The position numbers and the translations under genes are program-made. The notes under the pieces are model-generated. The model was given only the letters and a program-made list of their open reading frames with translations, had not been told where the DNA came from and searched no databases. From positions 12,749 to 76,748 of the forward strand of contig RFHH01000164.1 of NCBI GenBank assembly GCA_003696075.1: DNA of 64,000 nt, in the 5' to 3' direction. The DNA comes from Acidobacteriota bacterium (GTDB lineage Bacteria > Acidobacteriota > Polarisedimenticolia > J045). Shown here in pieces: positions 33,008-64,000 of this stretch (the first letter of the stretch is position 1; the number at the start of each line of letters is the position of its first letter).

Positions 33008-33225
33008 CCGCCGGTCGCCGGCCCTGGCACCGTGCGACCCGGACCGGATGTCCGCCCCCCGTGGGTCCGATCGTGGAACGCCTGTCCATCGTGGCATTAC
33101 TACCTTCGGCAAGCCGTTCGCGCCAGAGACGGCTCGGAAGCGCGTGCCGGGCGGAGGATGTGGTGGATAATCCGCAGCGCCCGCCAGACCGCCGGTGGCC
33201 GGCGGCCGCGGGGCATGGACCCTCG

Positions 33226-36712: not shown

Positions 36713-36876
36713 CGGGTGCCACGCGTCCGGGGAAACACCGCCGGTCGCACCGTTGGTTCACGAGGCGCGAGGCACTATGCTTGCCGTGCGGAACGGCGCC
36801 GGGTGAGCTCCGGCCGCGGGGCGCGGGAGCTCCGCGCCGGCCGGCGGAGGCGCGCGCGCCACGTCCTGGCGGACGA

Positions 36877-39787: not shown

Positions 39788-39865
39788 TCCGGCGGCCCTT
39801 GCCCGCCCTCCCGCCGCTGCCGAATATTGCCGGGGGGGCCGCGGCCCGATTCCGGAGGGTGGGCG

Positions 39866-46939: not shown

Positions 46940-46953
46940 AGGAGGGGCAGGCC

Positions 46954-47946
46954 GTGACCGCGCGGGCGAACCGGATGCCGGCGACCTTGTCGCTGGACCT
47001 CGACAACGAGTGGTCCTACCTCCGCGTCCGCGGCGATGCCCGATGGCGCTCGCATCCGTCCTACATTCCGCGGCTGATCGACCTCGTTCTGCCGATCCTC
47101 GACCGGCTGAACGTTTCGATCACGTTCTTTGTCGTGGGCCGGGACGCGGAGATCGACGCCCACCGGGCAGCGCTCGAGGAGGTGGCGCGCCGCGGACACG
47201 AGATCGGGAATCACTCGCACGAGCACGAGCCTTGGCTCCACCTCTACGCCGAGAAGGATCTCGCGGCGGAGATCGAGCGGTCCACGGCGGCGCTTCGAAA
47301 CGCCACGGGGCGCAGCCCGGTGGGCTTCCGGGGCCCCGGCTTCAGCGTCAGCCCCGCCGTGCTCCATGTCCTGTCGCGGGCCGGCTACGTCTACGACGCC
47401 TCGACGCTACCGACCTTCATCGGCCCGCTGGCGCGACTGTACTACCTGCGGACGGCGCCGGTCGCAGGGGAGGAGCGGGCCAAGCGCGCCCGGCTCTTCG
47501 GGCGATTCTCCGACGGATGGCGGCCCCTGCGGCCCTACCGGTGGCGGCTCGGGCCCCGGACGATCCTCGAGTTGCCGGTCACCACGGTGCCGCTGCTCCG
47601 CATCCCCTTCCACGTGAGCTATCTGCTTTTCCTGGCGCGGCGGTCTCACCTCGTGGCGACCCTCTACTTCCGCTTCGCGCTCCGTCTCTGCCGCATCCGA
47701 CGGGTCTCCCCCTCACTGCTGCTCCATCCCCTGGATTTCCTCGGAGGCGACGAGGTGCCCTCGCTCCGCTTTTTCCCCGCGATGGACCTGCCCGGCGACC
47801 GGAAACGGCAGTGGGTCTCGGCCTGGCTCGACGCCTACGTCCGCGACTTCGATGTGCTGCCCCTTGGCCGGTTCGCCGAAGAGCTCTCCGGGGCCGAGCT
47901 GCCGGAGTTTCCGCCCGGCTCAACCGCCTCGCCGCCGATCTCGTAG
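46954..47946 (+). CDS. Polysaccharide deacetylase (NodB-homology domain)
   Basis: The motifs LSLDLDNEW...ITFFVVGRD...GHEIGNHSHEHE are present. A GTG at 46954 follows AAGGAGGGG; the alternative GTG at 46936 overlaps the upstream stop. Confidence 0.7.
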   Translation: MTARANRMPATLSLDLDNEWSYLRVRGDARWRSHPSYIPRLIDLVLPILDRLNVSITFFVVGRDAEIDAHRAALEEVARRGHEIGNHSHEHEPWLHLYAEKDLAAEIERSTAALRNATGRSPVGFRGPGFSVSPAVLHVLSRAGYVYDASTLPTFIGPLARLYYLRTAPVAGEERAKRARLFGRFSDGWRPLRPYRWRLGPRTILELPVTTVPLLRIPFHVSYLLFLARRSHLVATLYFRFALRLCRIRRVSPSLLLHPLDFLGGDEVPSLRFFPAMDLPGDRKRQWVSAWLDAYVRDFDVLPLGRFAEELSGAELPEFPPGSTASPPIS

Positions 47947-49413
47947 ACGCACCACTCGCCGAACGCCGCGAGTTTCCGCAGCGGCAGCTCCGCGTCGATG
48001 ACGACGTGCGTGGCACCGTACCGGCGCGCCGCCTCGCGCACCGCGCCGGCGGTCAGCCGCCGGTAGCGCTCGGCCAGTTCCTCCTCTCCGGTTCCGCGAC
48101 CCACGGGCCCGAGCAGCAGATCGCAGCGCTCGCGCCATTCCCGGAACGAGGTGTAGGGGTGATAGACGCGGCTGGCCACGATGGCGCGCCGCGAGACGGA
48201 CCAGTTGCCCCGGAACCAGGGCGGCGCCACCAGAACCGCGTCCTCCGGAAGGCGGTCGCGGCACCAGCCCAGGGCCCGTTCGAGATCGGTCGGCGCCCGG
48301 AACCAGCTCGTCAGAGCCGGTCTGGCGGCGTCGGCGAGCCCGAACAGAGGACTGGGCACAGCGGCGAGCGCGGCGATCAGGAACGCTCTGAGGGCCATGC
48401 CCGCCTGCCGCCATCCCCCCTCCGCCGCCCATGCGCAGGCCCCGAGGAAGAAGAACAGCGGCGTCAGCAGGGGGAAGAGGCGGAACGGAAAGGTGGCCAG
48501 GAAGCGGTCGAAGCCCGCGACCCGGGCGACGCACCCCGCGGCAAAGACGGACGCGGCGGCCGCTTGCCACACGGTGGCGGCGCGCCAGAGGGGGCGCTCC
48601 CACAGTTGCGATCGGGCGACGAGGACGTTCACCGCGAACAGCACGCCGAGGAGGACGAGGCGCCTCACCGGCCAGGTCGCCGGGTCGAGGTGCTCGGGCA
48701 TCTTGACGAGCGCCATGTAGCGCCACTCCTCCGCCGACGTCACCCCCCCGGGCGCGAGAAGCAGCGGGAGGATCCCGACGGCAGCCGGGACGGCGAACAG
48801 CGCCGCCGCCGCTGCGGCGCGGCGGGCGGACGGGGGCCGCCGCAGCGCCGGTAGGAGGGTGATCGCCCCCCATCCTCCCACCGAGGGATGAAGGGCGGTG
48901 GCGAGGCCCGCCCACAGCCCGGCCTTCTCCACGGCGCTCCGGCTCACCGCCCGGAGCGACAAGAAAAGGGCCGCGTAAGCGAACGTCTTCGCCTCGAAGG
49001 TCTTGAGCATCCAGCTCCGGGCCACGATCGACTGGCCCGAGCCGAGCCACAGCGCCAGGGCAAGAGCGGCCAGCGGCGCGGTGAGCCCAGCCTCGCGCGC
49101 GACGACGAGGAGGACCGCGAGTCCGCCAATCCATCCGGCGAGACGCCCCATCGCGCCGAAGGTCTCGATGTCGAACGGGATGCTCAGCGGACCGGCGATG
49201 TGATTGAACAACCAGTGCTCGGGTGCCGGCTGGCGGAGCGTCCAGTCGTTCGCGAGGAAGTCCGGGTGCCCGAGGCGGTAGAGCCGGATCAGGTAGAAGT
49301 TCTCGTTACCCCACGGGACCGCGCCTCCGTGCTGGAGGCCGGTCAGGACGAGAAGGACGGCGAGCGCGGCCATCCAATGGTGCCGGCGTCCCGGCGTGCG
49401 CTTGTCGTCCATG
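47835..49413 (-). CDS. Polytopic membrane protein, possible GT-C-fold glycosyltransferase / polymerase
   Basis: The ATG at 49411-49413 follows GGAGGGAGGG. The protein has many transmembrane helices and a C-terminal soluble domain. The 3' end overlaps the convergent deacetylase by about 110 nt. Confidence 0.5.
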
Positions 49414-49444
49414 CCCTCCCTCCGCTTCGCGGCGTTCCGGCCCG

Positions 49445-50629
49445 TCAACCGCGCGCCGCACTCCGCGGCCTCCAGAACTCCCTCCCGAGAACGAGATCGC
49501 GATGCCGGCGCAGCACGTGGGCCATCCAGTCTACGTCCTCGTCGCGCAGATCCTGGTGCACGGGAAGCTCGACCACCGTCCGGCGCCACAGGTCCACCTG
49601 AGCGAAACGGCCCGGGGGGCAGGCCGGGTGATGGCGAGACCAGAACGAGATCGTCTCGATGCCGGCCTCGGCCAGGCGCGCCCGCAGCGCCGCCCGGTCG
49701 CGCGCGAGCACCGGGTAGGAGAGCGGGCAGGTCCCCTCGCCGAGCGGGGCGAGCGGACTGGGGGCCGCCTCGCCGGCCAGCTCGTGCAGCCGGAGGAAAT
49801 TTCGCCGCCGGCGGCTCACGATCTCCGCCCGGCGGGCGGCACGCGCCAGCCGCGCCACCCACGGGGAGACGCCGAGATCGAGCATCTCAGGATCGAGCTC
49901 CTCGGTGTCGACCCCGACCACCTCCGCTCTTCCGAGGCGCTTGAGCAGGCGGGCCGTGCGGGTGGCCAGGTCGGCGGCTCCCCGCCGGAGCCTCCCCCCG
50001 CCGAGCCGCGCGGCGTCGAGCAGGCGATGCAGCGTGAACGCGGCGGTGGAGAGTCGATCGGGCCTGCGGGCCGGCCCGGGAGGGGCGTCGCCGCCGCGGT
50101 TCCAGCGGAGCATCCCCCCGTGCGGGACCGGAAGCGTCTTGTAGAGGCAGAAAATCGCGAAGTCGCCGAAGGAGCCGAGCGGCCGCCCCCCCTCCTCGCC
50201 GTAAAGCGACAGCGCGCAGTCCTCGATCAGCGGGACACCCGCCTCGTCGCACAGGCGCCGGATCTCGGCGATCGGCTGCGGACGTCCCAGGTAGTGGGTG
50301 ACATACACCGCGGCGGGCCCTGCCGCGATCCGCCGGTGGAGCTCCTCGGGATCGGCGCGCAGGTCGGGACGAATGGGATAGAAGTCGAAGCGAACGCCCA
50401 GAACCCTGAGAACCTCGACCTCGATGCCGTGATGATAGGCCGGCATGAGAACCGTGCTGCCCGGACCGAGGCCCAACGCGCGCGCCCCTGCCCACAGCGC
50501 GTTGCGGGCCATGTAGTAGAAGCGCGATCGAGGATCGTCGAACGGCGGATCCGGAGCAGCCGGCTCCCTGGGGAGAACGTCGCCTGGGCGCAGCACCGGG
50601 TCGAACGTCACGTAGCGCGGCTTCGCCAT
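49445..50629 (-). CDS. DegT/DnrJ/EryC1-like PLP-dependent aminotransferase-fold protein
   Basis: The motifs MPAYHHGIEVEV and IEDCALSLYG are present. The start was chosen at MAKPRYVTF. Confidence 0.6.
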   Translation of the reverse strand: MAKPRYVTFDPVLRPGDVLPREPAAPDPPFDDPRSRFYYMARNALWAGARALGLGPGSTVLMPAYHHGIEVEVLRVLGVRFDFYPIRPDLRADPEELHRRIAAGPAAVYVTHYLGRPQPIAEIRRLCDEAGVPLIEDCALSLYGEEGGRPLGSFGDFAIFCLYKTLPVPHGGMLRWNRGGDAPPGPARRPDRLSTAAFTLHRLLDAARLGGGRLRRGAADLATRTARLLKRLGRAEVVGVDTEELDPEMLDLGVSPWVARLARAARRAEIVSRRRRNFLRLHELAGEAAPSPLAPLGEGTCPLSYPVLARDRAALRARLAEAGIETISFWSRHHPACPPGRFAQVDLWRRTVVELPVHQDLRDEDVDWMAHVLRRHRDLVLGREFWRPRSAARG

Positions 50630-51750
50630 CTCGCCGTCCAACGCTTGAGCCGCGGCACCGCGCCGAACTTCACCGCCTCGTGGAGCCGGCCCGCCGCCGT
50701 CGGAAGATAGAGGTACACCCAATAGACATCCCGGAGGGCCGGACGCCATTCCTGCTTGGCGGGCGTGACGTCGCCGAGAAAGTCGAACTCGCTCAGCCCT
50801 CTCCGGAAGGCGTCCCGGAGCAGTTCCTGCCACAGCAGCTGGCCCGGAGAATACCGCGCCATCTCCGGCGCGTACCCGATCTTCAGGCAGTACTCGCGGC
50901 CTTCGACTTCCAGGTTGAGATTGAACGCGATGCGGCGGCCCCCGGCGGTGAGGAAGCTGAGCCGCAGCCATCCGAGTTCGGCGGCGCGCGCGCACCACTC
51001 GGCGTAGAACGACGCCAGCTCCGGCCGGCAGCGGATCGCGCTGCCGCGGCGCCCCTTCCAGCCGGCCGCCTCGATCTCGAGAGCGTCGCCGAGAGCGCCC
51101 GCCAGCCGCTCTCCTCCCGTGACCGTTTCCACGGCGACTTCACCTTCCCGCTTCTCGAGGTTCCGGCGGCGCCGCCGAAGGTTGGCGCGGAACTTGGTGC
51201 GAAGACCCGCCTCGTAGGCCTCCCAGTCCCCTTCGATCCGGACGTAGGGAGACGGTACGGCCTTCCAGAGCCGGAACCGGCCGCCCGCCGCCTGCCAGCC
51301 CTCCAGCCAGGGGCGCAGACTCCGCGCGTCTCCCGGGACGAGCTCGAGGACGGCGGCGTCGCCGCGGTGGCGCAGCCACCGGAACAACGCCTCTCCGGCC
51401 TCCCCTGCGCGTTTCGGATCCACGAGCGGGGTGAACCGGTACGAGTGGTGGTTCGTCAGGGAGCGCCACAAGCGGGCGCGCGCCAGGCGCGCCGCGCCCG
51501 GGGGAACCACCAGCGGAAGGCCGAGCGCCGGCTCTCCGGCCGCGCGCAGCAGGAGCACCGCCGTGCGTCCTTCCGGTCCGAAGTGTTTCCAGAAGATCGA
51601 GACCCAGGAATGGCTGGCGAACGGATCGGCTGCGCCCACCGCGCGCCGTAACGCCTCCCATTCGGCCGCGCAGGCGTCGAAACGGCCGCGGTCCGCGATC
51701 GGCTCGACCTCGCAGTTCGCCGCGGCCGCCCGGCCCGCGGGCTCCGGCAT
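50608..51750 (-). CDS. FemAB-family / CelD-like (Acetyltransf_6) acyltransferase, second copy
   Basis: The protein is paralogous in architecture to 29513-30622 (ELGWLRLSFLTAGGRRIAFNLNLEVEGREYCLKIGYAPEMARYSPGQLL). Confidence 0.65.
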   Translation of the reverse strand: MPEPAGRAAAANCEVEPIADRGRFDACAAEWEALRRAVGAADPFASHSWVSIFWKHFGPEGRTAVLLLRAAGEPALGLPLVVPPGAARLARARLWRSLTNHHSYRFTPLVDPKRAGEAGEALFRWLRHRGDAAVLELVPGDARSLRPWLEGWQAAGGRFRLWKAVPSPYVRIEGDWEAYEAGLRTKFRANLRRRRRNLEKREGEVAVETVTGGERLAGALGDALEIEAAGWKGRRGSAIRCRPELASFYAEWCARAAELGWLRLSFLTAGGRRIAFNLNLEVEGREYCLKIGYAPEMARYSPGQLLWQELLRDAFRRGLSEFDFLGDVTPAKQEWRPALRDVYWVYLYLPTAAGRLHEAVKFGAVPRLKRWTARWRSRAT

Positions 51751-51832
51751 GATGTCCGCTCCCCTCGGCTCCGGCGCGCGCCGCACGCGCGTCGCGATCG
51801 CGCCCCGGGTTCCATAGTAACTTAGGCGCCAC

Positions 51833-53587
51833 GTGAGAGAAGACGAGCGCCACCGCCGGCCGACCGCGCCGCCGCCCGCCGGGGCCGGTTCCGCCTCCGC
51901 CCTCGCGGCGCGCGCGCTGCCGCCGCTGATCCTGTTGCTCGGACTGGCCCTTCACGGCATCGGGGTGCTCCAGCCGCTCGACCAGCCGCACTGGCGAACG
52001 ATCGACGACGCGGCGATCGCCCGGAACTTCGCCCGGGAGGGGCTCGACCCGGCGTTCCCGCGGGTCGACTGGCGGGGAGAGGGACCGGGCTTCGTCGAGA
52101 TGGAGTTCCCGTTCCTTCCGTGGGCGCTGGGCGTCGCGCACCGTGTCGCGGGCGTGCCGCTCCGGTGGGGACGCCTGCTGGCCTTTCTCGCCACGTGCGC
52201 GGCTGCCCTGATCTTCGACGCGCTGGCACGGCGGCGCCTGCCGCCGGCGGGCCGCGCGGTGGCGTTGGCCGCCTTCGTCCTCAATCCCACCCTCGCCGGC
52301 GTGTCGAACGAGATCCAGCCGGACGCGCTGATGCTCGCGCTGGCGCTCGGCGCCATCCTGAGCTTCGAGGCGTGGCTGTCGGCCCGGAGCGGCCGGCTGT
52401 GGCCGGCGTCGCTCCTCGCCGCTCTGGCCGTGCTGGCGAAGGCGCCGGCCGCTCTGATCCTGCCGGTCGTCGCCGTCCGCTCGCTCCGCCACCAGGGAGG
52501 GTGGCGCAAAGGCTTGTCGGGCGCCGCTCGCGTGAGCCTGGCCGCCGCGCTTCCCGCGGCCGTCTGGTACGGCCACGCCCACGGACTCTGGCTCCGTTAT
52601 GGGAACTCGCTCGGCTTGAGCGACGAGTCTCACTGGATCGGTGTCGACATGCTCGGGCATCCCGGCTTCTTGGCCGACATCGCGAAGCTCGAGTTCGCCG
52701 CGGTGATCCTGCCCGGCGGCGCGCTCCTCCTCCTGCTGGCGATCGCCGCCCGGTGGCGGGGCCGCGGATGCGACCTGGAGGTGGCCTGGCTCGGCGCGGC
52801 CTACCTGTTCTACCTCGCAGCAGGACGGACCACCGGGGACGCCTGGGCAGCCTACTACCACCTCGCCAGCCTCCCTCCGACAGCGCTCATGGTCGGTGCC
52901 GCCGCCCAGTTCCTCCTGGAGGCGGGGCGCGGGCGCGCTCTCCTTTTCGCCGCCCCGGCCGCCGCGATCGGAGGGGCGGCGTGGGGCCTCGCGCGCTCCG
53001 CCGACTCCGGCCTTTCTCCGCCGGCGCTCGTCTCGGCGGCCGCCGCCGGGGCCGCGGCGGGTGCGCTCGCCGCGGCGTTCCTCCTGCTCCCGGGGCGCGC
53101 GTCCGGTTCGCGCCGCACGGTGCTCGCGGCCCTCGGAGCCCTGGCTGCGACGGTCCTGGTTCTCGACGGGGCGAGGCGGAGCTGGTGGCACGACCGCCCG
53201 CGGCCTCCCCACGCTCTCCACGAGTGCGCACGATCCTTCGCGCCGCTCCTCGATGGCGCCCGCCGGATCGTCGCCAGCGGCGGCGACTGCCGCGACCCCA
53301 CGGGACGCCCGGTCGCCTACCACAAGCCCTACATGTTCTTCTGGACCGGGACCACGGGCTTTTCCGTCTGCCGCCAGGAGCTGGGATCGGTCGACGTGTC
53401 GAGGTTCCTCGCGGCGGGAGCCCGCTGGATGATCGTCGAGGTGCAGGACCTCGACGCCGCTCCTGGCGGGTGGCGGCTCGTCGAGCGTCACCGCGTGCGC
53501 GCGCGGTGCCCGGAGGCCTTCCTGATCGACCTGAGCGAGGAGCCGGTCACGCCGGCGAACGGAGCGAGTGGCGGGCGAGGAGGGTGA
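51833..53587 (+). CDS. GT-C-fold membrane glycosyltransferase (ArnT/PMT-like, GT39/GT83-like)
   Basis: The polytopic N-terminal half has the loop-1 motif FAREGLDPAFPRVDW typical of ArnT/PMT families. The start is GTG. Confidence 0.6.
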   Translation: MREDERHRRPTAPPPAGAGSASALAARALPPLILLLGLALHGIGVLQPLDQPHWRTIDDAAIARNFAREGLDPAFPRVDWRGEGPGFVEMEFPFLPWALGVAHRVAGVPLRWGRLLAFLATCAAALIFDALARRRLPPAGRAVALAAFVLNPTLAGVSNEIQPDALMLALALGAILSFEAWLSARSGRLWPASLLAALAVLAKAPAALILPVVAVRSLRHQGGWRKGLSGAARVSLAAALPAAVWYGHAHGLWLRYGNSLGLSDESHWIGVDMLGHPGFLADIAKLEFAAVILPGGALLLLLAIAARWRGRGCDLEVAWLGAAYLFYLAAGRTTGDAWAAYYHLASLPPTALMVGAAAQFLLEAGRGRALLFAAPAAAIGGAAWGLARSADSGLSPPALVSAAAAGAAAGALAAAFLLLPGRASGSRRTVLAALGALAATVLVLDGARRSWWHDRPRPPHALHECARSFAPLLDGARRIVASGGDCRDPTGRPVAYHKPYMFFWTGTTGFSVCRQELGSVDVSRFLAAGARWMIVEVQDLDAAPGGWRLVERHRVRARCPEAFLIDLSEEPVTPANGASGGRGG

Positions 53588-54740
53588 GCGCCTTCTCCCG
53601 CGACCGCCGCGGAAGGAGCAGCAGGAGCCGGGTCAGCAGGAGCACGGCCGTCGCCTTGGGGGCGAGCCAGCGGGAAGCGGGTGCGCCGGCCTTCAGGCGT
53701 GCGTATCGCAGCGAGAGCAGCGCCTCGTGCAGCACGCCCCGCCAGCGGAACGGGCCGGGCCACAGGAGTGCGCGCGCGAGGCAGGACTCGGCCCAGAACG
53801 GGCGCTCGACGCGCCCGAGAGCCGAGCGCAGGCAGGTCAGGCGCCTCGCCAGCCGCGCCGGCCGGGCCCGCACCGGCGCGCCGGTGCCGGGGCAGGCAGG
53901 GGCGATCCAGGGCCAGAGTTCCCGGGCGTAGCAGAGGGCGAGGTGGAAGTGCCTCCCCGCGCCGGAAGCCTCCGCGAACTCGGCCGCGCGTTCCAGCGTT
54001 CCGTCATCGGCGACCCGGCGCGCGAGACGGGCCACGTCACCCAGGTCGCGCAGCGTGACCGTGCCCGATGCGAGCGCGTGCCAGCTGAGGTACGCCAGCT
54101 CGTGGGCGGGATCGGGACGCAGGATGGAACCCAGCCTCCCGCCGGCGGGGCGGGCCTCGTTCCACCATGCGCCCATGTCGAACGAGACCGGATCGGTGCG
54201 AGGCGAGAGGTCCCAATGGAGCTCGACGACGGCGGCCGGTTTTCCCGGGCCCCGACTCCACGTCTCGTGATAGCGCTCGATTTCGGGATAGACGCTGGCG
54301 CGCCGGGTGTAACCCAGGCCGGCCATCGCCGTGCGCGCCGTCTCGAGTCCCTCCCGGTCGACCAGGATGTCGATGTCCTCGCACTCCCTCAGCGAGGGGT
54401 CCGCATAGAGGCTCTCGGCCAGAGCGACACCCTTGAGCGGCATGGCGCGCACGCCGCGCTGCGCCAGCAGGTCGAGCACTTCCCCTGCGAGGAGGAGCTG
54501 GGCGGCGTCGCGGGCCCGGAACTGCGCGTGGAGCGCCGCCGCCTCGGGATCGTCCCCGCGGCGCGCGCGCCACCAGGCGTAGAGGGGCAGCAGGCGATGG
54601 AGACGGGCCGTCTCGACCGCGCCACGAGGTTCCCGTCCGGCGGCCGGCCGCTCCGGGCGGAGGTCGGCCAGCGCCAAGTCCGCGAGCCATGCGAGAGGCT
54701 CCGGCAGGCCGGGCCTCACCGCTGCGATCGGCTCTTTCAT
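53547..54740 (-). CDS. Uncharacterised nucleotidyltransferase-family protein (PF14907 / NTP_transf_5-like)
   Basis: The nucleotidyltransferase core MPLKGVALAESLYADPSLRECEDIDILVD is present. The gene lies immediately downstream of lanA in the same orientation. The start was chosen at MKEPIAA. Confidence 0.6.
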   Translation of the reverse strand: MKEPIAAVRPGLPEPLAWLADLALADLRPERPAAGREPRGAVETARLHRLLPLYAWWRARRGDDPEAAALHAQFRARDAAQLLLAGEVLDLLAQRGVRAMPLKGVALAESLYADPSLRECEDIDILVDREGLETARTAMAGLGYTRRASVYPEIERYHETWSRGPGKPAAVVELHWDLSPRTDPVSFDMGAWWNEARPAGGRLGSILRPDPAHELAYLSWHALASGTVTLRDLGDVARLARRVADDGTLERAAEFAEASGAGRHFHLALCYARELWPWIAPACPGTGAPVRARPARLARRLTCLRSALGRVERPFWAESCLARALLWPGPFRWRGVLHEALLSLRYARLKAGAPASRWLAPKATAVLLLTRLLLLLPRRSREKALTLLARHSLRSPA

Positions 54741-54976
54741 CGGCGGCCGCCGGCCGCCTCGTGCCTCCGGGTCGGTTCGCGCACGTCGCTCCCCTCGTCC
54801 GGGCCCCCGCCGGCGGAGATATCGGATTATCGCCGAACCGCCCGGACAGCGGGTCGCCTCGGTCGATCGCCCGCTCCCCGGCGGGCGATCGAGGCCGTGG
54901 AGACCGGGGGCGGCCGAGCAGAAAAAGAGCAGAGTTCCCGATCGGAAGCCGGCCGGCCTCGTCCCGGAGAGCGAAC

Positions 54977-54998
54977 GGGCCGGGGAGATCCCCGGCCC
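54977..54998 (-). terminator. Perfect 9-bp GC stem-loop (GGGCCGGGG-AGAT-CCCCGGCCC) about 25 nt downstream of the lanA stop; candidate attenuator or transcript-stabilising hairpin
   Basis: An inverted repeat is read directly in the sequence. There is no canonical U-tract, so partial termination or read-through into the nucleotidyltransferase gene is possible. Confidence 0.3.
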
Positions 54999-55021
54999 GC
55001 CGCGGAAGAGGAAGCTGCCGG

Positions 55022-55216
55022 TCACAAGGTGATCGTGGGGCAATCGATGAAGGTGTGCGGGCACCAATTGGCCTGGGTGAAGCAGTAGATCTGCACCGTC
55101 CTTTTCTGCGCACCTCCGACGCGGGAGAGGTCCTCGCGCGTCAGGCGGCGGACGGTCTCGCGGTCGAGCGTGAGCCTCGGCTCGTCCCGCACGTCGTCGT
55201 TGCGTTCATGGTTCAT
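55022..55216 (-). CDS. lanA: Class I lanthipeptide precursor peptide (64 aa)
   Basis: The ATG at 55214-55216 is preceded by GGAGGA. The translation is MNHERNDDVRDEPRLTLDRETVRRLTREDLSRVGG|AQKRTVQIYCFTQANWCPHTFIDCPTITL. The leader has an FxLD-like box (LTLD) and a double-Gly cleavage site. The core has 3 Cys and 5 Thr. The gene sits next to the lanT/lanB/lanC genes. Confidence 0.8.
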   Translation of the reverse strand: MNHERNDDVRDEPRLTLDRETVRRLTREDLSRVGGAQKRTVQIYCFTQANWCPHTFIDCPTITL

Positions 55217-55401
55217 GGTCGGGTCCTCCAGGGCTCCCCGGAGCGTTCGCCCCGGGGGCCTCCACCCGGTTAGCACCGCGGCCGGGCGCATTTCACGCGA
55301 GGTTCTCCCGGCGAGACGGGCTTCCGGCGCCGCGGTCGCGCCCGGGTTTTGTCGTGGCACCGGGTTCATCGACTCGCCGGCCCTCGGATCCGCCCCTCGC
55401 C

Positions 55402-57690
55402 TCACGAACGCGCGGTCGCCGGACTCATCTGCGCGGCGACGAGGCGCGGGTAGATCCTCCCGTGCGCGAGCAGCTCGGCGTGCGTTCCGGTCTCCGCGAT
55501 CCGCCCGCGCTCGAGGACGACGATCCGGTCGGCATCGGCGACCGTGCTCAGCCGGTGGGCGATGACGATCTGCGTGACCCTCATCGATCTCAGGCGGTCG
55601 ACGACCGCGCGCTCGCCGAGCGCGTCGAGTTCGCTCGTCGCCTCGTCGAGGACGACGAGCGCCGGGCGGCGCGCGAAGACGCGGGCCAGCGCGAGCCGCT
55701 GGCGCTGCCCTCCGGAGAGCGACCGGCCGCCGTCCGGGAGCACGGTGTCGTAGCCGAGCGGCAGCGCGGCGATCTCCTCGTGGATCCCGGCGAGGCGAGC
55801 CGCCTCCACGATCCGCTCGCGCGTGCAGCGCGGATCGCCGAGCGAGACGTTGGCCGCCACCGAGGCGGCGAAGACGTAGGGGCGCTGGGGAACGATCCCC
55901 ATGCGCTGGCGGAGCGCGCCGGGGTCGAACGCTCTGCGGGGAACGCCGTCGTAGAGGATCTCGCCCTCCACGGGGTCCAGCAGACCGACGACGAGCCGGG
56001 CCAGCGTCGTCTTCCCGGCACCGGAGCGCCCGACGATCGCCACTCGCTCCCCGGGCCGGATCGCCAGGGAAACATCCCGGAGAACCCACGGCTCTCGCTC
56101 CCCGTAGCGGAAGGAAACCCGGCGGAGTTCCACGCCGCCCCGCAGCACGGGCGGCGCCGCAGACGGCGCCGGGCTCGAGTCGGCGGGAGTTTCGAGCACT
56201 TCGGCGATCCGCTCGGTGTGGCTGCGCAACCGCGCCAAGGAGAGACCGGTCGCGAGCATCCCGGCCAGCGGGGCGAGAAAGCCTCCCGCCAGCATCGACA
56301 GCGCCAGCATCGTCCCGACGGAGAGCCGTCCGTCGAGGACGGCCACGCCTGCCCCTCCGAGGACGGCCGCCGGCGCCGCCTGGCGAACGAGCAGCCCTGC
56401 GGCCTCGACCCAGGATTCCAGGCGGCCGCGCGCGAGCGCGGCGTTCAGCTCCTCGGCGTAGCGCTGCGCCCAGCTCCGGACGGCCTCACTCTCCGCGCCG
56501 AGCGCCTTGAGCGTTTCCATCCCCGCGAGCATCTCCACGAGCTCCCCCTGCTCCCGGGCGCGGCTTTCGAGTTCCGACGCGGCCAGTTCCCGCTCGCGCC
56601 GGCGCGACGCCGCGAGGAGCACCGCCTGCGCCGCCCCGGCCGAGAGCGCGATCGCCCCCGCGGGCGGCCAGATCCAGGCGAGCGCCGCCAGGTGGACCGC
56701 GGCGAACAGGGCGTCGAGCAGGCCGGAGAGGACGGCGCCGGTCAGCGCATCCCGCACGACGCGATTGCTCGCGAGGCGGGTGAGCAGGTCTCCCGAAGAG
56801 TGGGCCAGAAAGAAGGCGTACGGGAGGCGGGCCAGGTGCTCGACGAACGCGGTCGACAGCCGTTCCTCGAGGAGCGTGCGCAGGGCGACCAGCGCGCGCC
56901 CGCGGGCCAGCGTCGCCAGCGCCGATCCCGCGGCGACGCCCAGCAATCCCGCGACGAAGGCGACGAGGACGGCGCTCTTCGCCCCCGGCGCGATCCTGTC
57001 GACGAGGCTCCCCGTCAGCAGCGGAACCGCGAGCGCACCGAGCTGGACGGCGAGCGTGAGAGCGAGGCAGACCGCGACCCTCCCCTTGTGTCTCCAGAGG
57101 AGCGGGAGCAGCCAGTGACGCCGCCGAGACGAGGGAACGGCCGCCGGGCACGGGCGCGGCTCGAAGACCAGTGCCACCCCTGTGAACTCGCGGCGGAGGA
57201 GCTCGCGCGAGACCTTCCGCCGGCCGAACGAGGGATCGACGACGACGGCGCCGCGCCGGGTGGCCCGCTCGAAGACGACGAAGTGGTCGAATCCCCAGTG
57301 CAGGATCGACCCCGGGGGGAGGAAGCGAAGATCGCCCAGCGACAGCCGGAGGCCGCGGCCCGACAGGCCCCAGCGTTCCGCCGCGTCCACGATGTCGCGC
57401 GCCGTCGCGCCGCCCGCGCTCCGGCCCAGAGCGGCCCGCACGGTGCCAAGAGGGACGCGGCGCCCGTGCGCGGCGAGGACCATCGCCAGGCAGGCGGCGG
57501 CGCAGTCCGACTCCGAAAAGCCGGCGACGAAGGGGATCCGGCGGCGGCGGAAACGGCGCACCCGGACCGGCTCGCCGTAGCGTCCGCGCCGCGCGTGGTG
57601 GCGCAGCGCCTCCGCGCGGAACAGGGCCCGGCGGCCCGCTCTCGTCCCGTTTCCCCCGGCGCGGGCGCCCGTCTCCGGTCCGGTGCTCAT
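55402..57690 (-). CDS. lanT: Peptidase-C39-domain ABC transporter (bacteriocin / lanthipeptide processing exporter)
   Basis: An N-terminal C39 domain with catalytic Cys (FSESDCAAACLAMVLA) is followed by six transmembrane helices and an ABC ATPase with Walker A (GRSGAGKTT), signature (LSGGQRQR) and Walker B (LVVLDEATS) motifs. ATGA overlap with the lanB stop. Confidence 0.9.
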   Translation of the reverse strand: MSTGPETGARAGGNGTRAGRRALFRAEALRHHARRGRYGEPVRVRRFRRRRIPFVAGFSESDCAAACLAMVLAAHGRRVPLGTVRAALGRSAGGATARDIVDAAERWGLSGRGLRLSLGDLRFLPPGSILHWGFDHFVVFERATRRGAVVVDPSFGRRKVSRELLRREFTGVALVFEPRPCPAAVPSSRRRHWLLPLLWRHKGRVAVCLALTLAVQLGALAVPLLTGSLVDRIAPGAKSAVLVAFVAGLLGVAAGSALATLARGRALVALRTLLEERLSTAFVEHLARLPYAFFLAHSSGDLLTRLASNRVVRDALTGAVLSGLLDALFAAVHLAALAWIWPPAGAIALSAGAAQAVLLAASRRRERELAASELESRAREQGELVEMLAGMETLKALGAESEAVRSWAQRYAEELNAALARGRLESWVEAAGLLVRQAAPAAVLGGAGVAVLDGRLSVGTMLALSMLAGGFLAPLAGMLATGLSLARLRSHTERIAEVLETPADSSPAPSAAPPVLRGGVELRRVSFRYGEREPWVLRDVSLAIRPGERVAIVGRSGAGKTTLARLVVGLLDPVEGEILYDGVPRRAFDPGALRQRMGIVPQRPYVFAASVAANVSLGDPRCTRERIVEAARLAGIHEEIAALPLGYDTVLPDGGRSLSGGQRQRLALARVFARRPALVVLDEATSELDALGERAVVDRLRSMRVTQIVIAHRLSTVADADRIVVLERGRIAETGTHAELLAHGRIYPRLVAAQMSPATARS

Positions 57691-60600
57691 CGCGCCATGG
57701 CCCGGGGGGCGGTGGCCGGCGCGCGCGCGGCGCGGGAGGTCTCGATCCGCCCCAGGAAGTCGCCCACGACCAGCTCGCAGGCGCGGTGGAGGTCCCGCAT
57801 GATCCGGTTCACGGCCATGTGGGCGAGGCTCGCGGCGATCTCGGCGACCGAGCACGACAGGCGGCGCGAGCGCTCGAGAGAGCGCAACTCGAGCCCGAGC
57901 CGGCGGGCCGCCTCGTCGCGGCGCTCGAGGATGGCGAGCATCCCCGCCTCCCAGTCCTCCACCGCCTCGCCGGCGAGGAGCCGTTCGAGCCGTCCCCTCT
58001 CCTCGCGCAGCCTGGAAGCGAGCGCGCGGCGCAGTGCGGCGGCGTCCGGCAGGAAGCGCGCCGCCCCCTCGCGGATACCTCCGGCAAGGGCAGCCCGCGC
58101 TCCGGCTTCGAAGCCGAGTGCGGCCAGAAGGCGGCCGACCGACAGGAATGCCGCCAGCCAGCGCTCCGAGTCGCGGCCCGTTTCGCGGAGGATCTCCAGG
58201 AGATCGACCGCCGCGTCGCTGTCGGCACCGAAGAACCGCTCGACCCGCTCGATCGCCTCCGCTCCGCCGTAGCGCTCGATCTCGCGCCGGTAGGTGTCGA
58301 GCGCGACGCGCACGAGCCCGCCGTCCTCGAGCGCGCGGCGCGCCGGGCGGAGCAGCACCTCCTGCGCCTGTGCAACGTCCGGGCCGAGGGCGCGGACGCG
58401 CAGCCGGACGTGCGGATCGGGATCGGCGTACCGGACGAAAAACCAGCAGGCGGCGCTGCGCGAGGCGACCAGCGCGCGGGCCGCCGGGGCCATCTCCCGG
58501 AGGAGGAGATCCTCCGCCGAGGAGGGCCCGGCATAGAACTTCAACGTGATCCACTCGCTTCCCGGGGCGAAGCACCGGCGGGTGACCGCGGCGGGAGCGG
58601 GGCGCGGTGGCGCCGCGCGCGCGGGGCGGGGAGCGGAAAAGAACGGAACCACCGCCTCGACCGCGTAGGCGCCGTCCGGGCCCTGCCCGGGATAGCGGTC
58701 CGGCGGCGGGAACCACTCCCGCAGCTCGACGCGGCCGCGTGAGCGCGCGGTCCGCGCGAACAGCTCCGCCAGGAGGACGTTCTCGAAGTCGATGGGGAGT
58801 TCGTGATCGAACTCGGCGATCACCACCCGCCGGGGTAAGCCGCGCCGCTCGCGCCAGCTCCGCAGGCGGCGGATCAACGAGGCCCCGCGCTGATCCGCCC
58901 ACGCCTCCCAGTCGTCCCGCGCCACGGTCCAGCGGGCGCGCGCGAGCACGACGCCGCGCCACACGACCCGCGGGAGCCACCGCGCCGAGCCGACGGGGCC
59001 CCAGTCCCAGGCGACACCCGGGAGGAGATCCTGCGCGGCCAGGGAGGTCAGGAACCGGTAGACCGGAAGCGCGTTCGGCGCCACGTGATGGGCGCTCGAC
59101 AGGAGCGGAACGACCTCCCGCCCGTGCCGCCGCGAGTGCAGCACGACCCTCCCCTCCTCCACGGAGACCAGGAGGTCGTCCAAGGGCAGGACTTGCGGCG
59201 AGCCGCCGCGGCCGGCGAGGCAGGGGATCTCGTAACGCCGGAGGGCCGGCCGCTCGAGGACGTTCCCGGCGCTGCCGCCAGGGTCGTGCACGACCTCGGC
59301 GAGAAGCACGCCCGGCCACAGCTCCTCCTCGCGCCTGGCCAGCTCGCCAAGGTGCCGTTCGAGCTCGCCGTCGAGCGCTGCGAAGCGGGCGAGCAGGCGC
59401 GCCCCCGTGGGACCGCTCGCGCCGCGGAACAGGATCGACGGAGCGCGGCCCGAGGGACGCGCGAAGGCGACGAGGGCCGCGAGCGAGGGCGGCAACGGCC
59501 GCGGCGCAGCGGCCTCCATCCGGGCGATCGTCCGCTCGTCGAGCTCGATTTCGGCGGCGCCCGACTCCCAGGCGCGGCGGGCGAGATCCAGCAGCGCCTC
59601 CTCGCGGGGACCCCAGGGCGCGCGGCGCGCGGCGCGGGAACCCGGCGCGATCGGCAGCTCGCCGATCCACCCGGCGGCTGCCGGACGCGGTCCGGCGAAG
59701 GCCTCGAGCAGGCCCGTCTCCGCGTCGAGGGCAGCCAGGAGGGGCACGCGCTCGCGGCCGTAGCGTTCGACGAAGGCGTCCCGGAACCGGTCGAGATCGG
59801 TGGGCGCGGGCTCGGGCGCCGTCCGGTGGAGCAGGCGGATCGCGCCGGCGATCCGGGAGATCGACTCCTCGCCGAGCCGGATCCGCGACCCGGTGCGATA
59901 GCTGTCGGCGCGCACGAAGCGGGCGTCTTCCGCGCCGCCGGAAAGGCTCCGGAGATCGGCCCGGAGCCGCTCGCACGCGGCGGGCAGCGAAACGAGCGGA
60001 GCGGCGTCGATGCGATCGAGAACGGAAAGCGTCCGCGCAAGCACCCTCCCCGCGTCGGAACCGGCCCCGGCGAGGCGAGCGGCGAGATCGCGCTGCGGAT
60101 CCCGTCCCGTGAAGCACGGGCGGGCCTCCGGCTGGAGCAGCTGGCAGTCGACCAGCTCGCGAACGAAGGCCTCCGCGGCCTTTCGCTCGTGGCCCTCGGC
60201 GACCAGCAGGTCCACCGCCTCCCCGAAGCTCAGCCCCCGGCGAGCGGCGGCGACGAGGCGATCCAGCGGCCCGCTCGGTCGGACCGCCACCTCCTCGGCG
60301 CCCGTCTCGGTGCCGGGGAGGCCCGGCCTCGCCGCGAACCGCCACTTGCCGGCCGCGCGGTAGAGCGTTTCGTTGGCGGTGAGGCGCTCCGCCTCCGGGC
60401 CTTTCGTTCCGCGCCGGAACCGGGCGAGCCATCGCGCCAGGAACGCGGAATCGAGGCGGGTGCGGCGCCGGATCGACTCCCGCGACCCGATCCGGAACTC
60501 GTCGCCCCCGCCGACGTGCGCGAGGGCGCAGGCGGAGAACAGGCCGAACGGGGTGGGCCGGCACGACATGCGGAGGAGGTAGGACAGGGCCGCTTCCTCG

Positions 60601-60902
60601 ACCCGCGCGCCGGAGCCGGGGTGGCCGCCCGCCCAGAGATCGAAGCGTCGCGCCAGATCGGGCGAGGCGATCCAGATCGCGGCCCGCACCGAGGGATCGC
60701 GCCACCGCTCGCGGACGAAATCCCGCATCCGCTCGCGATCCCTCTCCGCCGCGGGGATCAGGTCGCCGCCGGACGCGGAGGGTGCGGCGAGGCCCTCGAA
60801 GACGGGCCGGACGGCGGATCCCGGAAAGAGGGGGATCCGCGCCAGGGCGAATCCGGCGGGCGTCAAGGGCACGGTGGCGTTCCCGCGGCGTTTCATCGCC
60901 AT
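57687..60902 (-). CDS. lanB: Lanthipeptide dehydratase (class I LanB, full length with C-terminal elimination domain)
   Basis: The N-terminal region (FALARIPLFP...) matches the Lant_dehydr_N family. The C-terminal SpaB_C / thiopeptide-type domain carries WFFVRYADPDPHVRLRV. At about 1071 aa it is a typical LanB size. Its start overlaps the lanC stop. Confidence 0.9.
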   Translation of the reverse strand: MAMKRRGNATVPLTPAGFALARIPLFPGSAVRPVFEGLAAPSASGGDLIPAAERDRERMRDFVRERWRDPSVRAAIWIASPDLARRFDLWAGGHPGSGARVEEAALSYLLRMSCRPTPFGLFSACALAHVGGGDEFRIGSRESIRRRTRLDSAFLARWLARFRRGTKGPEAERLTANETLYRAAGKWRFAARPGLPGTETGAEEVAVRPSGPLDRLVAAARRGLSFGEAVDLLVAEGHERKAAEAFVRELVDCQLLQPEARPCFTGRDPQRDLAARLAGAGSDAGRVLARTLSVLDRIDAAPLVSLPAACERLRADLRSLSGGAEDARFVRADSYRTGSRIRLGEESISRIAGAIRLLHRTAPEPAPTDLDRFRDAFVERYGRERVPLLAALDAETGLLEAFAGPRPAAAGWIGELPIAPGSRAARRAPWGPREEALLDLARRAWESGAAEIELDERTIARMEAAAPRPLPPSLAALVAFARPSGRAPSILFRGASGPTGARLLARFAALDGELERHLGELARREEELWPGVLLAEVVHDPGGSAGNVLERPALRRYEIPCLAGRGGSPQVLPLDDLLVSVEEGRVVLHSRRHGREVVPLLSSAHHVAPNALPVYRFLTSLAAQDLLPGVAWDWGPVGSARWLPRVVWRGVVLARARWTVARDDWEAWADQRGASLIRRLRSWRERRGLPRRVVIAEFDHELPIDFENVLLAELFARTARSRGRVELREWFPPPDRYPGQGPDGAYAVEAVVPFFSAPRPARAAPPRPAPAAVTRRCFAPGSEWITLKFYAGPSSAEDLLLREMAPAARALVASRSAACWFFVRYADPDPHVRLRVRALGPDVAQAQEVLLRPARRALEDGGLVRVALDTYRREIERYGGAEAIERVERFFGADSDAAVDLLEILRETGRDSERWLAAFLSVGRLLAALGFEAGARAALAGGIREGAARFLPDAAALRRALASRLREERGRLERLLAGEAVEDWEAGMLAILERRDEAARRLGLELRSLERSRRLSCSVAEIAASLAHMAVNRIMRDLHRACELVVGDFLGRIETSRAARAPATAPRAMAR

Positions 60903-62156
60903 CCTCCCACCTCGGGCGCGGAGAGCAGGAGCACGCGGTCCCAGGCCGGCGGTTCCGGTCCCAGTGCCTCGAGGAGCACGAGGCCGACACCCGCGGCCCC
61001 GATCAGGAAGCAGCGCCGCTCCCCCGGCGTCGGGGCCCGCCCCGGCGCCGGGCCCGGGACGGGCTCCAGCCCGGCGATCCCGCCGACGTCCGGCCGGTGG
61101 AAATCGACCGCCCGGCGCAGCCACCGGCGGGCGGCGCGGAGCAGAGCGGGGACACGCAGGGCGCGGCCGAGGCGGCCGCACAGGTGGGCCACGCCGGCCG
61201 CTCCGTGGCAGAGGCTGGCGTCGGCCACGCCCGCGAGCTTCGGCGGGAGAAAGCCGGCCCGCAGCGCGAGGGCCCGCGCCCGGGCGCACCAGCGCCGATC
61301 GCCCGTGACCCGAGACGCCATGGCCATCGCGGACGCGACGCCGAGATCGCCGTAGCACCACCCCAGCCGCGAGCGCGCGGGGCGACCGGCTGCACGGCCG
61401 GTCATCGCCGGGAACCGGAGCGCCCCCCCGCGACGCTGCATCCGCCAGGTCCAACGGAGCGCCCCGGAGATCACGGACCGCAGCTCCTCGTCGTCACCGG
61501 GGCCGGCCGCTGCCGCGCGCGCGAGGAAGGCGGCGACGCCGGGGACGCCGTGCGCCAGGCCGAGGTTGTACTCGTAGTCACCGAAAGGTGTGGCCCAGCG
61601 GACGCCGGACCCGTCGCGCTCGGCGCGGCGCACGATCCGCCGCACCGCCTCCTCGAGCGCCCGGCCGGCCTCGCGATTCCCGCCGCGCTCGAGCGCTGCG
61701 ACACCGTAGCCGGCGAGACCGTACATCAGCTCGACCGGCGCCGTATCGCCGGCCCGGCGGCACAGCCCGCCGATGAGAGCGTCGGCGGGCCGCACCGCGC
61801 GCTCGAAGGCCAGGGGAAGCAGGCCTTCGCGCGCGAGGTGGGCCGCGACCCAGACCGGGCCGAGGAGCCCGCCGAAGAGCGCCGCGCTCGAGCAGCGGCG
61901 CGGCGCGGCGGCCAGCGCCGCGGAGAGCCGGAGCGCGGCGGCGCGCGACCAGCGCTCCGAGCCGAACGAACGCCCGGCGTAGGCGAGGAAGAGCGCGACG
62001 CCGGCGGTGCCGGTGGCGAGGGTGGGGTCGTGTGCGTCCTCTTCATCGCCCGCCAGCGTCTCGGCGATGGCCTCGACCGAGGCCCGCGCGCGGCGGCCGA
62101 GCTGCCGGTCCACCGGAAGGAAGGCCGCGCGGGCGCGATCCTGGACAGCGGCTGCC
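60893..62156 (-). CDS. lanC: Lanthionine synthetase C-like cyclase
   Basis: The three zinc-ligand motifs of LanC are present: GLAHGVPG, WCYGDLG and LCHGAAG. The start was chosen at MAAAVQ; the track ORF extends to 62299. Confidence 0.85.
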
Positions 62157-62291
62157 ATCGGCTCCGGCTCCCGTACCGATGGCACCGCGGCGGCTCTCTT
62201 TTCACGGCGCGGCGAGCGGATGCCGGAGTAGGATGTGGCCAGCGCCGCCGGCCGCGCCGCGGTCCGGCGTGCGGCGGGAGAAGGCGAGCCG

Positions 62292-62555
62292 ATGGGCAAG
62301 AAGAAGGGCTACGGGCGGGTCATATGGCCCGGCTTTTCGTACAAGCCGGCACCCCGCCATCTCGTGAAGGTCGGCCGGAACGATCCCTGCCCCTGCGGGT
62401 CCGGCCGCAAGTACAAGGAGTGCCACGAAAGCGAAGGGGACGCGTTCCTGGAGCGGCTGGCGCTCGAGGAGCAGAAGCGCCGGATCCGGGAGCGGCGGGA
62501 GCAGCTCAAGCGGGAGGGCGTTCCCTGGTACAAGCGCCTGTTCCTCCGGCGCTGA
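62292..62555 (+). CDS. Small SEC-C-motif (zinc-binding) protein
   Basis: The gene has a GGAGAAGG Shine-Dalgarno sequence, and the motif [16 protein letters not shown] is the SEC-C metal-binding signature. Confidence 0.65.
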
Positions 62556-62696
62556 GCCGCTCGCGGAAGCGGTCGGGGCCCCGATCCGAAAACTGGCGAA
62601 CCATAACGAACAAGGAGCCAGCTCAAGTCGCGGCCCCTCCGGCCGAGGAGTCCGGCAGGGCGGGTGCGCGCCGCCGGTCGGGCCGAGGGAGCCGGC

Positions 62697-64000
62697 ATGC
62701 AGCTCAGCAGCACGGAAAAGGCGCTCTACGTCAAGCTCGTCTATTACGGGCCCGGGCTGTCCGGCAAGACGACCAACCTCGAGACGCTCCACCGCCTGAC
62801 CGATCCCGACGCGAAGCAGCCGATGGTCTCGCTCAAGACCAGCGGCGACCGGACCCTGTTCTTCGACCTTCTTCCGTTCGACCTGGGCAAGCTGTACGGG
62901 ATGGATGTCCGGCTGAAGCTGTACACGGTGCCGGGGCAGATCCACTACGACACCACGCGAAAGCAGGTGCTCGCCGGGGCGGACGGCGTCGTCTTCGTAG
63001 CGGACTCGGCGCCCGATCGACGGGACGCCAACAAGAACATGATCCGCTACCTGAAGAACAACCTGCAGTCCAACGGACTCGATCCCGAGACGATTCCTCT
63101 CGTCTTCCAGTGGAACAAGCGCGATCTTCCCGACGCGATGCCGGTCGAGCAGATGAACGCCGAGCTCAACTGGCGCGGCGTTCCAGCCCTGGAGGCGATC
63201 GCGACCCGCGGGGACGGGGTGATCGAGACGTTCAAAGAGATCACGGTGCTGACCCTCGAGGAGATCGCGTCACGCAGCGGCAGCGTGCTCGCCGGCCCGG
63301 TCGGATCGATCCGGGCGAAGGTGGAACAGGCGTTCGCGCGCTTCGCCCCGGCGGCCGCGGCGGCGCCCGCGAAGGCCGGCCGGACGCGGGCCGCGCCCCC
63401 GGCCGGGACGGGCTACGTCCACGAGGCTCCCCTCGAAACGGCCGCGCCGAACGCCGACAGCTCCTCCGAGCTGGACGAGCTCCTCAAGCAGGCGGTCGAA
63501 GCGAACCTGAAGATGTCGGAGAAGCTGGTCGCCGGACCGGATCGCGACGTCTTGCTCGCGAGGGCGCGGCGCGAGCGCAAGGCCCTGGCGCGGCTGGTGC
63601 AGATCGCCGGCGTCTCTCGCGAGCCGATCGCCCTGTACAAGCTCGCTCTTTCGTCGGCGCTCGCCGGTCTCGATCTTTCCGTCGGCTCGGCGCTGCTCAA
63701 CGCGGGCCCGGGCCAGCCGCTCAAGGAGATCGCCGTGAGCGGCCGGGACGCCGACCCGCTGAACAGCGTGCTCTCACCCGGCATCGGCTCCGTCGCCAGC
63801 GGCCTGCTCGAGCGCGGCCAGCCGCTGCTCACCCACGACATCGAGGGGGAGCTGATGTTCGGGCAGTCGCACGAGGCGGTGGCCGGGCTCCGCGCCGTCC
63901 TGAGCTGCCCGGTCGGGCGCTCGAAGGCCGGGCTCCTGCTCGCCTACGCCGGTCCCCGCGACCGCGACCTCGAGCCGGACGACCTCGAGTTCCTCGGCCT
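62697..64000 (+). CDS. MglA-like Ras-family small GTPase with a long C-terminal GAF-like extension; 3' end off the window
   Basis: The N-terminal 190 aa align residue-for-residue with MglA (LVYYGPGLSGKTTNL; LYTVPGQ; QWNKRDL). The ORF continues for more than 240 aa, with a GAF-like region (LLERGQPLLTHDIEGELMFG...), to the window edge. It is absent from the ORF track because no stop codon falls inside the window. Confidence 0.7.
   Translation, partial: MQLSSTEKALYVKLVYYGPGLSGKTTNLETLHRLTDPDAKQPMVSLKTSGDRTLFFDLLPFDLGKLYGMDVRLKLYTVPGQIHYDTTRKQVLAGADGVVFVADSAPDRRDANKNMIRYLKNNLQSNGLDPETIPLVFQWNKRDLPDAMPVEQMNAELNWRGVPALEAIATRGDGVIETFKEITVLTLEEIASRSGSVLAGPVGSIRAKVEQAFARFAPAAAAAPAKAGRTRAAPPAGTGYVHEAPLETAAPNADSSSELDELLKQAVEANLKMSEKLVAGPDRDVLLARARRERKALARLVQIAGVSREPIALYKLALSSALAGLDLSVGSALLNAGPGQPLKEIAVSGRDADPLNSVLSPGIGSVASGLLERGQPLLTHDIEGELMFGQSHEAVAGLRAVLSCPVGRSKAGLLLAYAGPRDRDLEPDDLEFLG

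Follow-up and report, generated by a model that had tools for sequence, protein, structure and literature searches.

A probable class I lanthipeptide gene cluster with a double-glycine leader in a G+C-rich Acidobacteriota contig

Does a compact set of minus-strand genes on a G+C-rich Acidobacteriota contig encode a working lanthipeptide pathway, and if so, does it represent a lineage that has yet to be described? The window analyzed here is the whole 64,000-nucleotide (nt) stretch at positions 12,749 to 76,748 of contig RFHH01000164.1 (assembly GCA_003696075.1), and a preliminary description made from its letters alone had placed in it a complete class I lanthipeptide cluster with the gene order lanC-lanB-lanT-lanA and an accessory nucleotidyltransferase. 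Raw lists of open reading frames (ORFs) are crowded with spurious frames because the G+C content of the window averages ~71%. Coding frames between 53.5 and 62.2 kb were called with a frame plot of G+C by codon position (GC3), which resolves a single minus-strand coding frame per gene over this interval. Translation and a Pfam scan found five minus-strand genes within 53547..62158; the start codon of lanC occupies 62158-62156, and the upper bound of the feature, given earlier as 62156, is corrected to 62158 while the lower one stands. Pfam domains, catalytic residues and a leader-model match all bear out a complete class I cluster in the proposed order, and we consider it very probable that this cluster is functional and that it belongs to the subfamily with double-glycine leaders that has been found in Gram-negative phyla.

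The dehydratase and the cyclase carry much of this assignment. The lanB gene (57687..60902, minus strand) encodes 1071 amino acids, and its matches to PF04738 (Lant_dehydr_N, glutamylation; 1.2e-127) and PF14028 (Lant_dehydr_C, elimination; 1.2e-51) each span essentially the whole profile, in agreement with the earlier view of a full-length LanB of about 1071 amino acids that includes the elimination domain. The protein aligns with MibB (5EHK) over its full length (2.6e-37) and with NisB in three shorter stretches (1.3e-27). Eight NisB residues (R87, T89, D121, D299, R464, R786, E823 and R826) align to the same residue type in LanB, namely R115, T117, D151, D333, R506, R835, E874 and R877, respectively, and a ninth, NisB H961, corresponds to LanB H1028, an equivalence taken from the family motif HMxxNR rather than from a direct alignment to NisB. 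In an alignment with 32 relatives, these nine catalytic positions are invariant or nearly so. The LanB catalytic residues are intact and the enzyme looks active.

The lanC gene (60893..62158, minus strand) encodes 421 amino acids with a LANC_like domain (PF05147, 9.8e-35), and its G+C contents at the first, second and third codon positions (GC1/2/3) are 0.82/0.63/0.90. The GxAHG, WCxG and CHG motifs of the preliminary description are present as GLAHG (His203), SRLGWCYG (Arg264, Cys268, Tyr269) and CHG (Cys317, His318), and all three line up with the zinc-ligand and catalytic motifs seen in LanC-like proteins of known structure. The Cys-Cys-His zinc ligands and the catalytic His of a stand-alone LanC are all found (His203, Cys268, Cys317, His318), as is Arg264, four residues before the first motif Cys. 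With these active-site residues intact, LanC also looks active. Its top NCBIfam match is the LanM cyclase domain, and a like resemblance to LanM cyclases was described for class I LanC proteins of Bacteroidetes by Walker et al. (PMC7268733). Domain support and active-site integrity were thus checked for both enzymes, with strong hidden Markov model (HMM) matches and intact catalytic residues in each case.

The third gene, lanT (55402..57690, minus strand), encodes a 762-amino-acid exporter in which an N-terminal C39 peptidase domain (Peptidase_C39, 1.6e-26) is followed by a membrane domain (ABC_membrane, 1.7e-24) and an ATPase (ABC_tran, 3.3e-29). Like the Pfam domains of LanC and LanB, these three score well beyond their cutoffs. 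The best NCBIfam match is the NHLP bacteriocin exporter TIGR03796, at a score under the cutoff of that family. The C39 domain matches LahT150 (6MPZ) at 3.2e-21 and contains the catalytic triad Cys63, His136 and Asp152, and the Walker A, signature, Walker B and H-loop motifs of the ATPase are all present.

How tightly are these genes joined? All four had been called translationally coupled, which holds for two of the three junctions: lanC and lanB overlap by 10 nt, and lanB and lanT overlap in an ATGA. The lanA gene is not translationally coupled to lanT because it lies 185 nt downstream. Two in-frame ATGs are available to lanB, at 60902 and 60896, with a GGGAGG 6 nt upstream of the second; initiation at this second ATG, which shortens the overlap with the lanC stop to 4 nt (ATGA), may yield a LanB of 1069 rather than 1071 amino acids.

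What peptide would these enzymes act on? The candidate is lanA (55022..55216, minus strand), which encodes 64 amino acids without a Pfam match, has a GGAGGA Shine-Dalgarno sequence 7 nt before its ATG and shows GC1/2/3 values of 0.57/0.46/0.88. Its leader (55112..55216, minus strand; residues 1-35 or 1-36) contains LTLDRETVRRL…VGG, in which L15-T-L17-D-R19-ETVRR-L25 fits the pattern LxLxKx5L with Arg in place of Lys. Leaders of the form LxLxKx5L…GG are known from class I precursors whose clusters often include a C39 protease (Walker et al. 2020, PMC7268733). An HMM of the leader, built from 24 precursors encoded beside related LanB genes with the window peptide left out, matches LanA at 27.6 bits (E 2.7e-6), and this is its sole match in the 64-kb window. 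At related loci, the leader takes the form KKLxLxKETLRxLxxxxLxxVxGG and is followed by Cys/Thr/Ser-rich cores that are mutually unrelated. The predicted LanA core, (A)QKRTVQIYCFTQANWCPHTFIDCPTITL (55022..55111 including the stop codon, minus strand), contains five Thr, no Ser and three Cys.

The exact end of the leader is ambiguous. A cut after G35-A36 (VGGA/Q) places V33, L30 and L25 at positions -4, -7 and -12, as in the relatives, whereas a cut after G34-G35 places them at -3, -6 and -11. In the complex of LahT150 with its substrate, hydrophobic residues occupy -4, -7 and -12 (PMC6363468), and the spacing favors GGA over GG as the predicted site. With all five Thr dehydrated, the core would have a calculated neutral monoisotopic mass of 3236.551 Da for a cut after GGA and of 3307.588 Da for a cut after GG.

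Conservation of the precursor in related genomes divides along the same boundary, with the leader conserved and the core without relatives in the searched databases. A word-indexed search of 5.8 billion proteins with full-length LanA returned only the self-match, and an exhaustive phmmer search of 1.84 billion representatives returned LanA itself and two spurious repeat proteins (P0050, P0051). Could the 64-amino-acid ORF then be something other than the substrate, with the true peptide encoded elsewhere or the cluster making another LanB-dependent product such as a thiopeptide? The isolation of the core would fit such a reading, as would the label 'thiopeptide-type bacteriocin biosynthesis' that both JGI and NCBIfam attach to the C-terminal domain of LanB, but the relatives as a rule have hypervariable core sequences, and the ORF itself combines the family leader, a GG site, five Thr and three Cys. 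LanB is full length and not split, a stand-alone LanC is present, and Pfam scans of the cluster genes and their immediate neighbors found no azoline- or pyridine-forming enzyme. A thiopeptide cluster was rejected on these grounds (full-length LanB, presence of LanC, no azole-forming enzyme found nearby), and the broader idea of another substrate is highly improbable. Judged by its sequence, the 64-amino-acid ORF is a real precursor, and LanA belongs, as a divergent member, to a leader family already described while its core is unique, a combination typical of such peptides.

The steps by which this precursor would mature can be proposed in outline, and those assigned to LanB and LanC follow established knowledge of NisB- and NisC-type enzymes. 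LanA would be produced as the 64-amino-acid precursor, and its leader (LxLxRx5L, then GG) would dock on LanB. LanB would then use glutamyl-tRNA(Glu) to glutamylate the five Thr of the core and eliminate glutamate to leave dehydrobutyrines, and the zinc enzyme LanC would add the three core Cys to dehydrobutyrines to form methyllanthionine rings. In the simplest topology, Thr5-Cys10, Thr12-Cys17 and Thr20-Cys24 would form successive rings, and Thr26 and Thr28 would stay as dehydrobutyrine. LanT would export the peptide, and its C39 domain would cut the leader at the double-glycine-type site during transport. Modification of double-glycine-leader class I peptides by their own LanB/LanC pair has a precedent in the viridisins and VdsCB (PMC9680876). 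Walker et al. cite two lipid II-binding motifs, SxxxCTP(G/S)C and TxTxEC (PMC7268733); LanA has neither, and for this reason the activity of any product is not predictable.

Several features weigh against the assignment as a functional member of this subfamily. LanA scores 12.3 bits (E 0.14) against the NCBIfam leader model NF038153 (lant_leader_L1a), short of the curated cutoff of 22 that 7 of 10 precursors from related loci pass, and its N-terminus is acidic where those of the relatives are Lys-rich. The three-ring topology suggested by the Thr/Cys spacing is a simplest guess only, and no immunity or regulator gene is recognizable in the cluster. Two substitutions fall around LanT residues 57-63 (57502..57522), where the C39 domain reads VAGFSESDCA: Gly occupies position 57, at a distance of six residues ahead of the catalytic Cys, in place of the Gln of 37 of 39 related exporters and of LahT150 and PCAT1, and the residue after the catalytic Cys is Ala, giving DCA where the relatives have DCG. 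These changes could lower the protease activity of LanT. They also raise the alternative that the cluster is cryptic or partly disabled, such that loss of the Gln weakens the C39 domain and the peptide is exported uncleaved or needs another protease. We regard such impairment as rather improbable, since the Cys-His-Asp triad and every ATPase motif are intact and all cluster genes show a strong coding-type codon bias with no frameshifts and no internal stops. The role of the Gln is itself in question: an oxyanion-hole function had been proposed for this conserved C39 residue, but in the LahT150 co-crystal it lies 4.3 Å from the oxyanion (PMC6363468), so the effect of its loss in LanT is uncertain.

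Is the cluster the undescribed lanthipeptide lineage that its G+C-rich setting had seemed to indicate? The wider survey argues otherwise. The leader is of the described LxLxKx5L type, and relatives of LanB occur in at least 569 stretches of one-genome-per-species data. Among the best 80 of these, 38 are from Acidobacteriota (counting Candidatus Angelobacter, the placement of which was checked), 21 from Myxococcota or 'delta' groups, 8 from Actinomycetota, 5 from Planctomycetota, 4 from Bacteroidota-type bacteria, 2 from Gammaproteobacteria, and one each from Chloroflexota and Bacillota. The nearest are 35-40% identical to LanB and none is closer than 40%. High G+C content is shared as well: all three related loci for which it was computed (L001-L003) have 68-70%. 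On this sequence evidence, the cluster belongs to a described double-glycine-leader class I subfamily that is abundant in Acidobacteriota and Myxococcota genomes.

The gene order is likewise within the range of this subfamily. Within the DNA fetched for 83 related loci, a LanC gene is present in 53 and a C39 exporter gene in 39, and the commonest arrangement has lanC directly upstream of lanB, as in the window. Thirty-nine precursors were detectable in 26 of the related loci: 18 lie just upstream of lanC, 6 between lanC and lanB, and 6 after lanT. Five of these last six belong to loci with the order T-A-C-B (L001, L017, L028 and L044), from which the C-B-T-A of the window follows by cyclic permutation, and the sixth is in L007. 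The figure legend for the viridisin operon also gives the cyclase, then the dehydratase, then the precursors (PMC9680876). The placement of lanA last is uncommon yet not new, since both the related loci and the viridisin operon offer precedent.

Two of the related loci show features of their own. Near a LanB relative on an Acidobacteriota chromosome, an ORF at 1963..2820 of L013 (minus strand) contains five tandem units of LTDEQLxEVKGG followed by PGWCSxCGxVYSNHNETT, and this ORF resembles a multi-core precursor that supplies every core with a double-glycine leader segment of its own. Another locus, L002 (JGI Ga0268265_10000556), encodes at least five leader-family precursors, two LanC proteins and a PrmA/PRMT_C-type methyltransferase; a methyltransferase of the same type is also found beside PF14907 genes in two lasso-peptide clusters (L085 and L086).

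Downstream of lanA, the question shifts to where the cluster ends. The perfect 9-bp hairpin reported earlier is present at 54977..54998 (minus strand), with a G+C stem and a 4-nt loop, 24 nt past the lanA stop codon; its stem can be extended to ~14 pairs, and the predicted RNA fold of 54940..55030 (-50.5 kcal/mol, z = -3.0) is more stable than any of 200 shuffled sequences. A second hairpin, missing from the preliminary description, lies at 54863..54892 (minus strand) between lanA and the nucleotidyltransferase gene and is a perfect 12-bp inverted repeat with a 6-nt loop and the arms TCGATCGCCCGC and GCGGGCGATCGA. No U tract adjoins either hairpin; a T-rich run, CTCTTTTTCTG, is found between the two at 54919..54929. 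Taken over its full length, the 281-nt spacer from lanA to the nucleotidyltransferase gene shows no significant structure (z = -1.34), and only the two local hairpins stand out. A scan for intrinsic terminators gave four sites against 2.5 expected by chance, with none at the lanA hairpins, and a scan for sigma-70 promoters found none. No Rfam family matches anywhere in the window, and the three intergenic regions have no motif in common that is longer than 9-10 nt, which is consistent with chance in G+C-rich DNA. A GATAAT element lies in 54818..54834, ~80-95 nt before the start codon of the nucleotidyltransferase gene.

Does this fifth gene belong to the cluster? It lies at 53547..54740 (minus strand) and encodes a 397-amino-acid protein of nucleotidyltransferase fold, and the PF14907 domain that the preliminary description had named is present (NTP_transf_5, 1.5e-39); its membership in the cluster is unproven. 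As a true part of the cluster, it would encode a tailoring enzyme that transfers a nucleotide or phospho-sugar and would be co-transcribed by read-through past lanA. In keeping with this idea, the gene has the orientation of the lan genes, with no further gene before a convergent plus-strand one, and the DxD metal site of its product (D122, D124) is intact and invariant among relatives. Relatives are also found in clusters for other ribosomally synthesized peptides that are post-translationally modified (RiPPs), namely the lasso clusters L085 and L086 and 17 of the 80 metagenome loci described below. A tailoring role is conceivable because the phosphorylated lasso peptide pseudomycoidin receives its hexose only with the help of PsmN, an uncharacterized protein of the nucleoside triphosphate transferase type (PMC6993621).

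The distribution of homologs points the other way. None of the 83 related LanB loci has a PF14907 homolog, and among 80 metagenome loci with the nearest relatives of the PF14907 protein (27-43% identity), none contains LanB or LanC, while 17 contain lasso-peptide markers and 4 contain glycosyltransferase markers. These 80 loci were drawn with a two-sequence alignment, and since a lasso cluster was the source of one of its sequences, the sample is biased in favor of lasso-type relatives. In addition, 281 nt and two strong hairpins separate the gene from lanA, a relative occurs in a glycan locus among glycosyltransferases (L084), and a 26-kb polysaccharide locus directly adjoins the gene in the window. 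We therefore think it unlikely that the gene is a genuine component of the lanthipeptide cluster. Less likely still is that it encodes a dedicated tailoring enzyme, on a module borrowed from lasso clusters, that adds a nucleotide, a phospho-sugar or a similar group undescribed for lanthipeptides.

The resemblance to PsmN has similar limits. Both are uncharacterized nucleotidyltransferase-fold proteins with a DxD site that are encoded next to RiPP genes, and each weakly resembles ANT(2'') enzymes in structure; the comparison covers fold, DxD site and genomic context. The predicted structure of the window protein (predicted local distance difference test score, pLDDT, 72.7) gives weak matches to polymerase-beta-type nucleotidyltransferases, ANT(2'') and the phospho-ribitol transferase FKRP, all with E > 1e-3. 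PsmN acts on phosphoserine made by an HPr-kinase-like enzyme (PMC6993621), whereas a tblastn search with an HPr-kinase-like protein from L086 found no such partner in the window.

The surroundings of the five genes were also surveyed. The gene that converges on the PF14907 gene encodes a PMT_2-like glycosyltransferase (51833..53587, plus strand), and the two stop regions overlap by 41 nt. This gene is the last of the polysaccharide locus (27137..53587, ~26 kb), which also encodes a GT4 glycosyltransferase, a polysaccharide deacetylase, a Wzy-like polymerase, a GT2 glycosyltransferase, a beta-helix protein, a Wzx-like flippase, a UDP-GlcNAc 2-epimerase, a DegT aminotransferase and a FemAB-like acetyltransferase. 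A lasso cluster hidden beside the PF14907 gene was considered and rejected, as the window contains no lasso markers. On the other side, lanC is flanked by two divergent genes on the plus strand. The first (62235..62555) encodes a 106-amino-acid protein, for which an identity as MglB was rejected in view of its SEC-C metal-binding motif; the second (62607..63998), which continues past the end of the window, encodes a fusion of an Arf/Ras-like GTPase domain with a GAF domain.

A myxobacterial origin of the DNA was rejected, since GenBank labels its source an Acidobacteria/Acidobacteriota metagenome-assembled genome. In a different read set, a 2.6-kb Logan contig encodes a PF14907 protein identical to that of the window and a lanA ORF with a longer call (P0052, P0059); exact look-ups with LanA and LanB found no record in the contig index. 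The GenBank annotation could be improved, because lanA (RMG43962.1, D6718_11065) and lanB (RMG43964.1, D6718_11075) are entered only as "hypothetical protein".

How does the cluster compare with systems that are already understood? The nisin system combines an FNLD-type leader, the subtilisin-type protease NisP, an exporter without a C39 domain, a precursor gene in first position, and immunity and two-component regulator genes. The window cluster has none of them but shares with nisin the equivalents of the NisB catalytic residues and the LanC zinc site, such that the dehydration chemistry is presumed to be alike. The closer comparison is with the double-glycine class I systems of Gram-negative bacteria, namely the pinensins of Chitinophaga, Ped15.1/15.2 of Pedobacter lusitanus, and the thalassomonasins and viridisins of Thalassomonas. 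In common with these, the window has a separate full-length LanB and LanC, an LxLx(K/R)x5L leader with a Gly-Gly-type end, and a C39 exporter, which is often encoded in such systems in place of a subtilisin-type LanP (Walker et al., PMC7268733). It differs in its host, an Acidobacteria metagenome-assembled genome of ~72% G+C, in an unrelated core that holds Thr and no Ser, in the position of lanA after lanT, in the acidic leader N-terminus with a score under the NF038153 cutoff, and in a C39 domain without the conserved Gln. Identity between LanB and the two Chitinophaga relatives that were found does not exceed 30%.

Further counterparts are the related uncultured clusters of Acidobacteriota and Myxococcota, such as those of Acidobacteriota/Thermoanaerobaculia (L017, L028, L044) and of Hyalangium (L007), which share a LanB of 35-40% identity, the leader family and, in most, a lanC gene directly upstream of lanB; the Hyalangium cluster also has lanA after lanT. 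The related Acidobacteriota and Myxococcota clusters differ from the window in their unrelated cores, in the placement of lanA just upstream of lanC in most of them, and in that none has a PF14907 gene. We know of no experimentally characterized class I lanthipeptide from Acidobacteriota. What is new here is the core sequence, the divergent leader, an unusual substitution in the C39 active-site region and the juxtaposed PF14907 gene, whose membership is unproven. The cluster leaves existing knowledge of lanthipeptide biosynthesis unchanged, yet it is a reasonable candidate for heterologous expression because it is compact and intact and encodes a core without a relative among the ~5.8 billion proteins searched.

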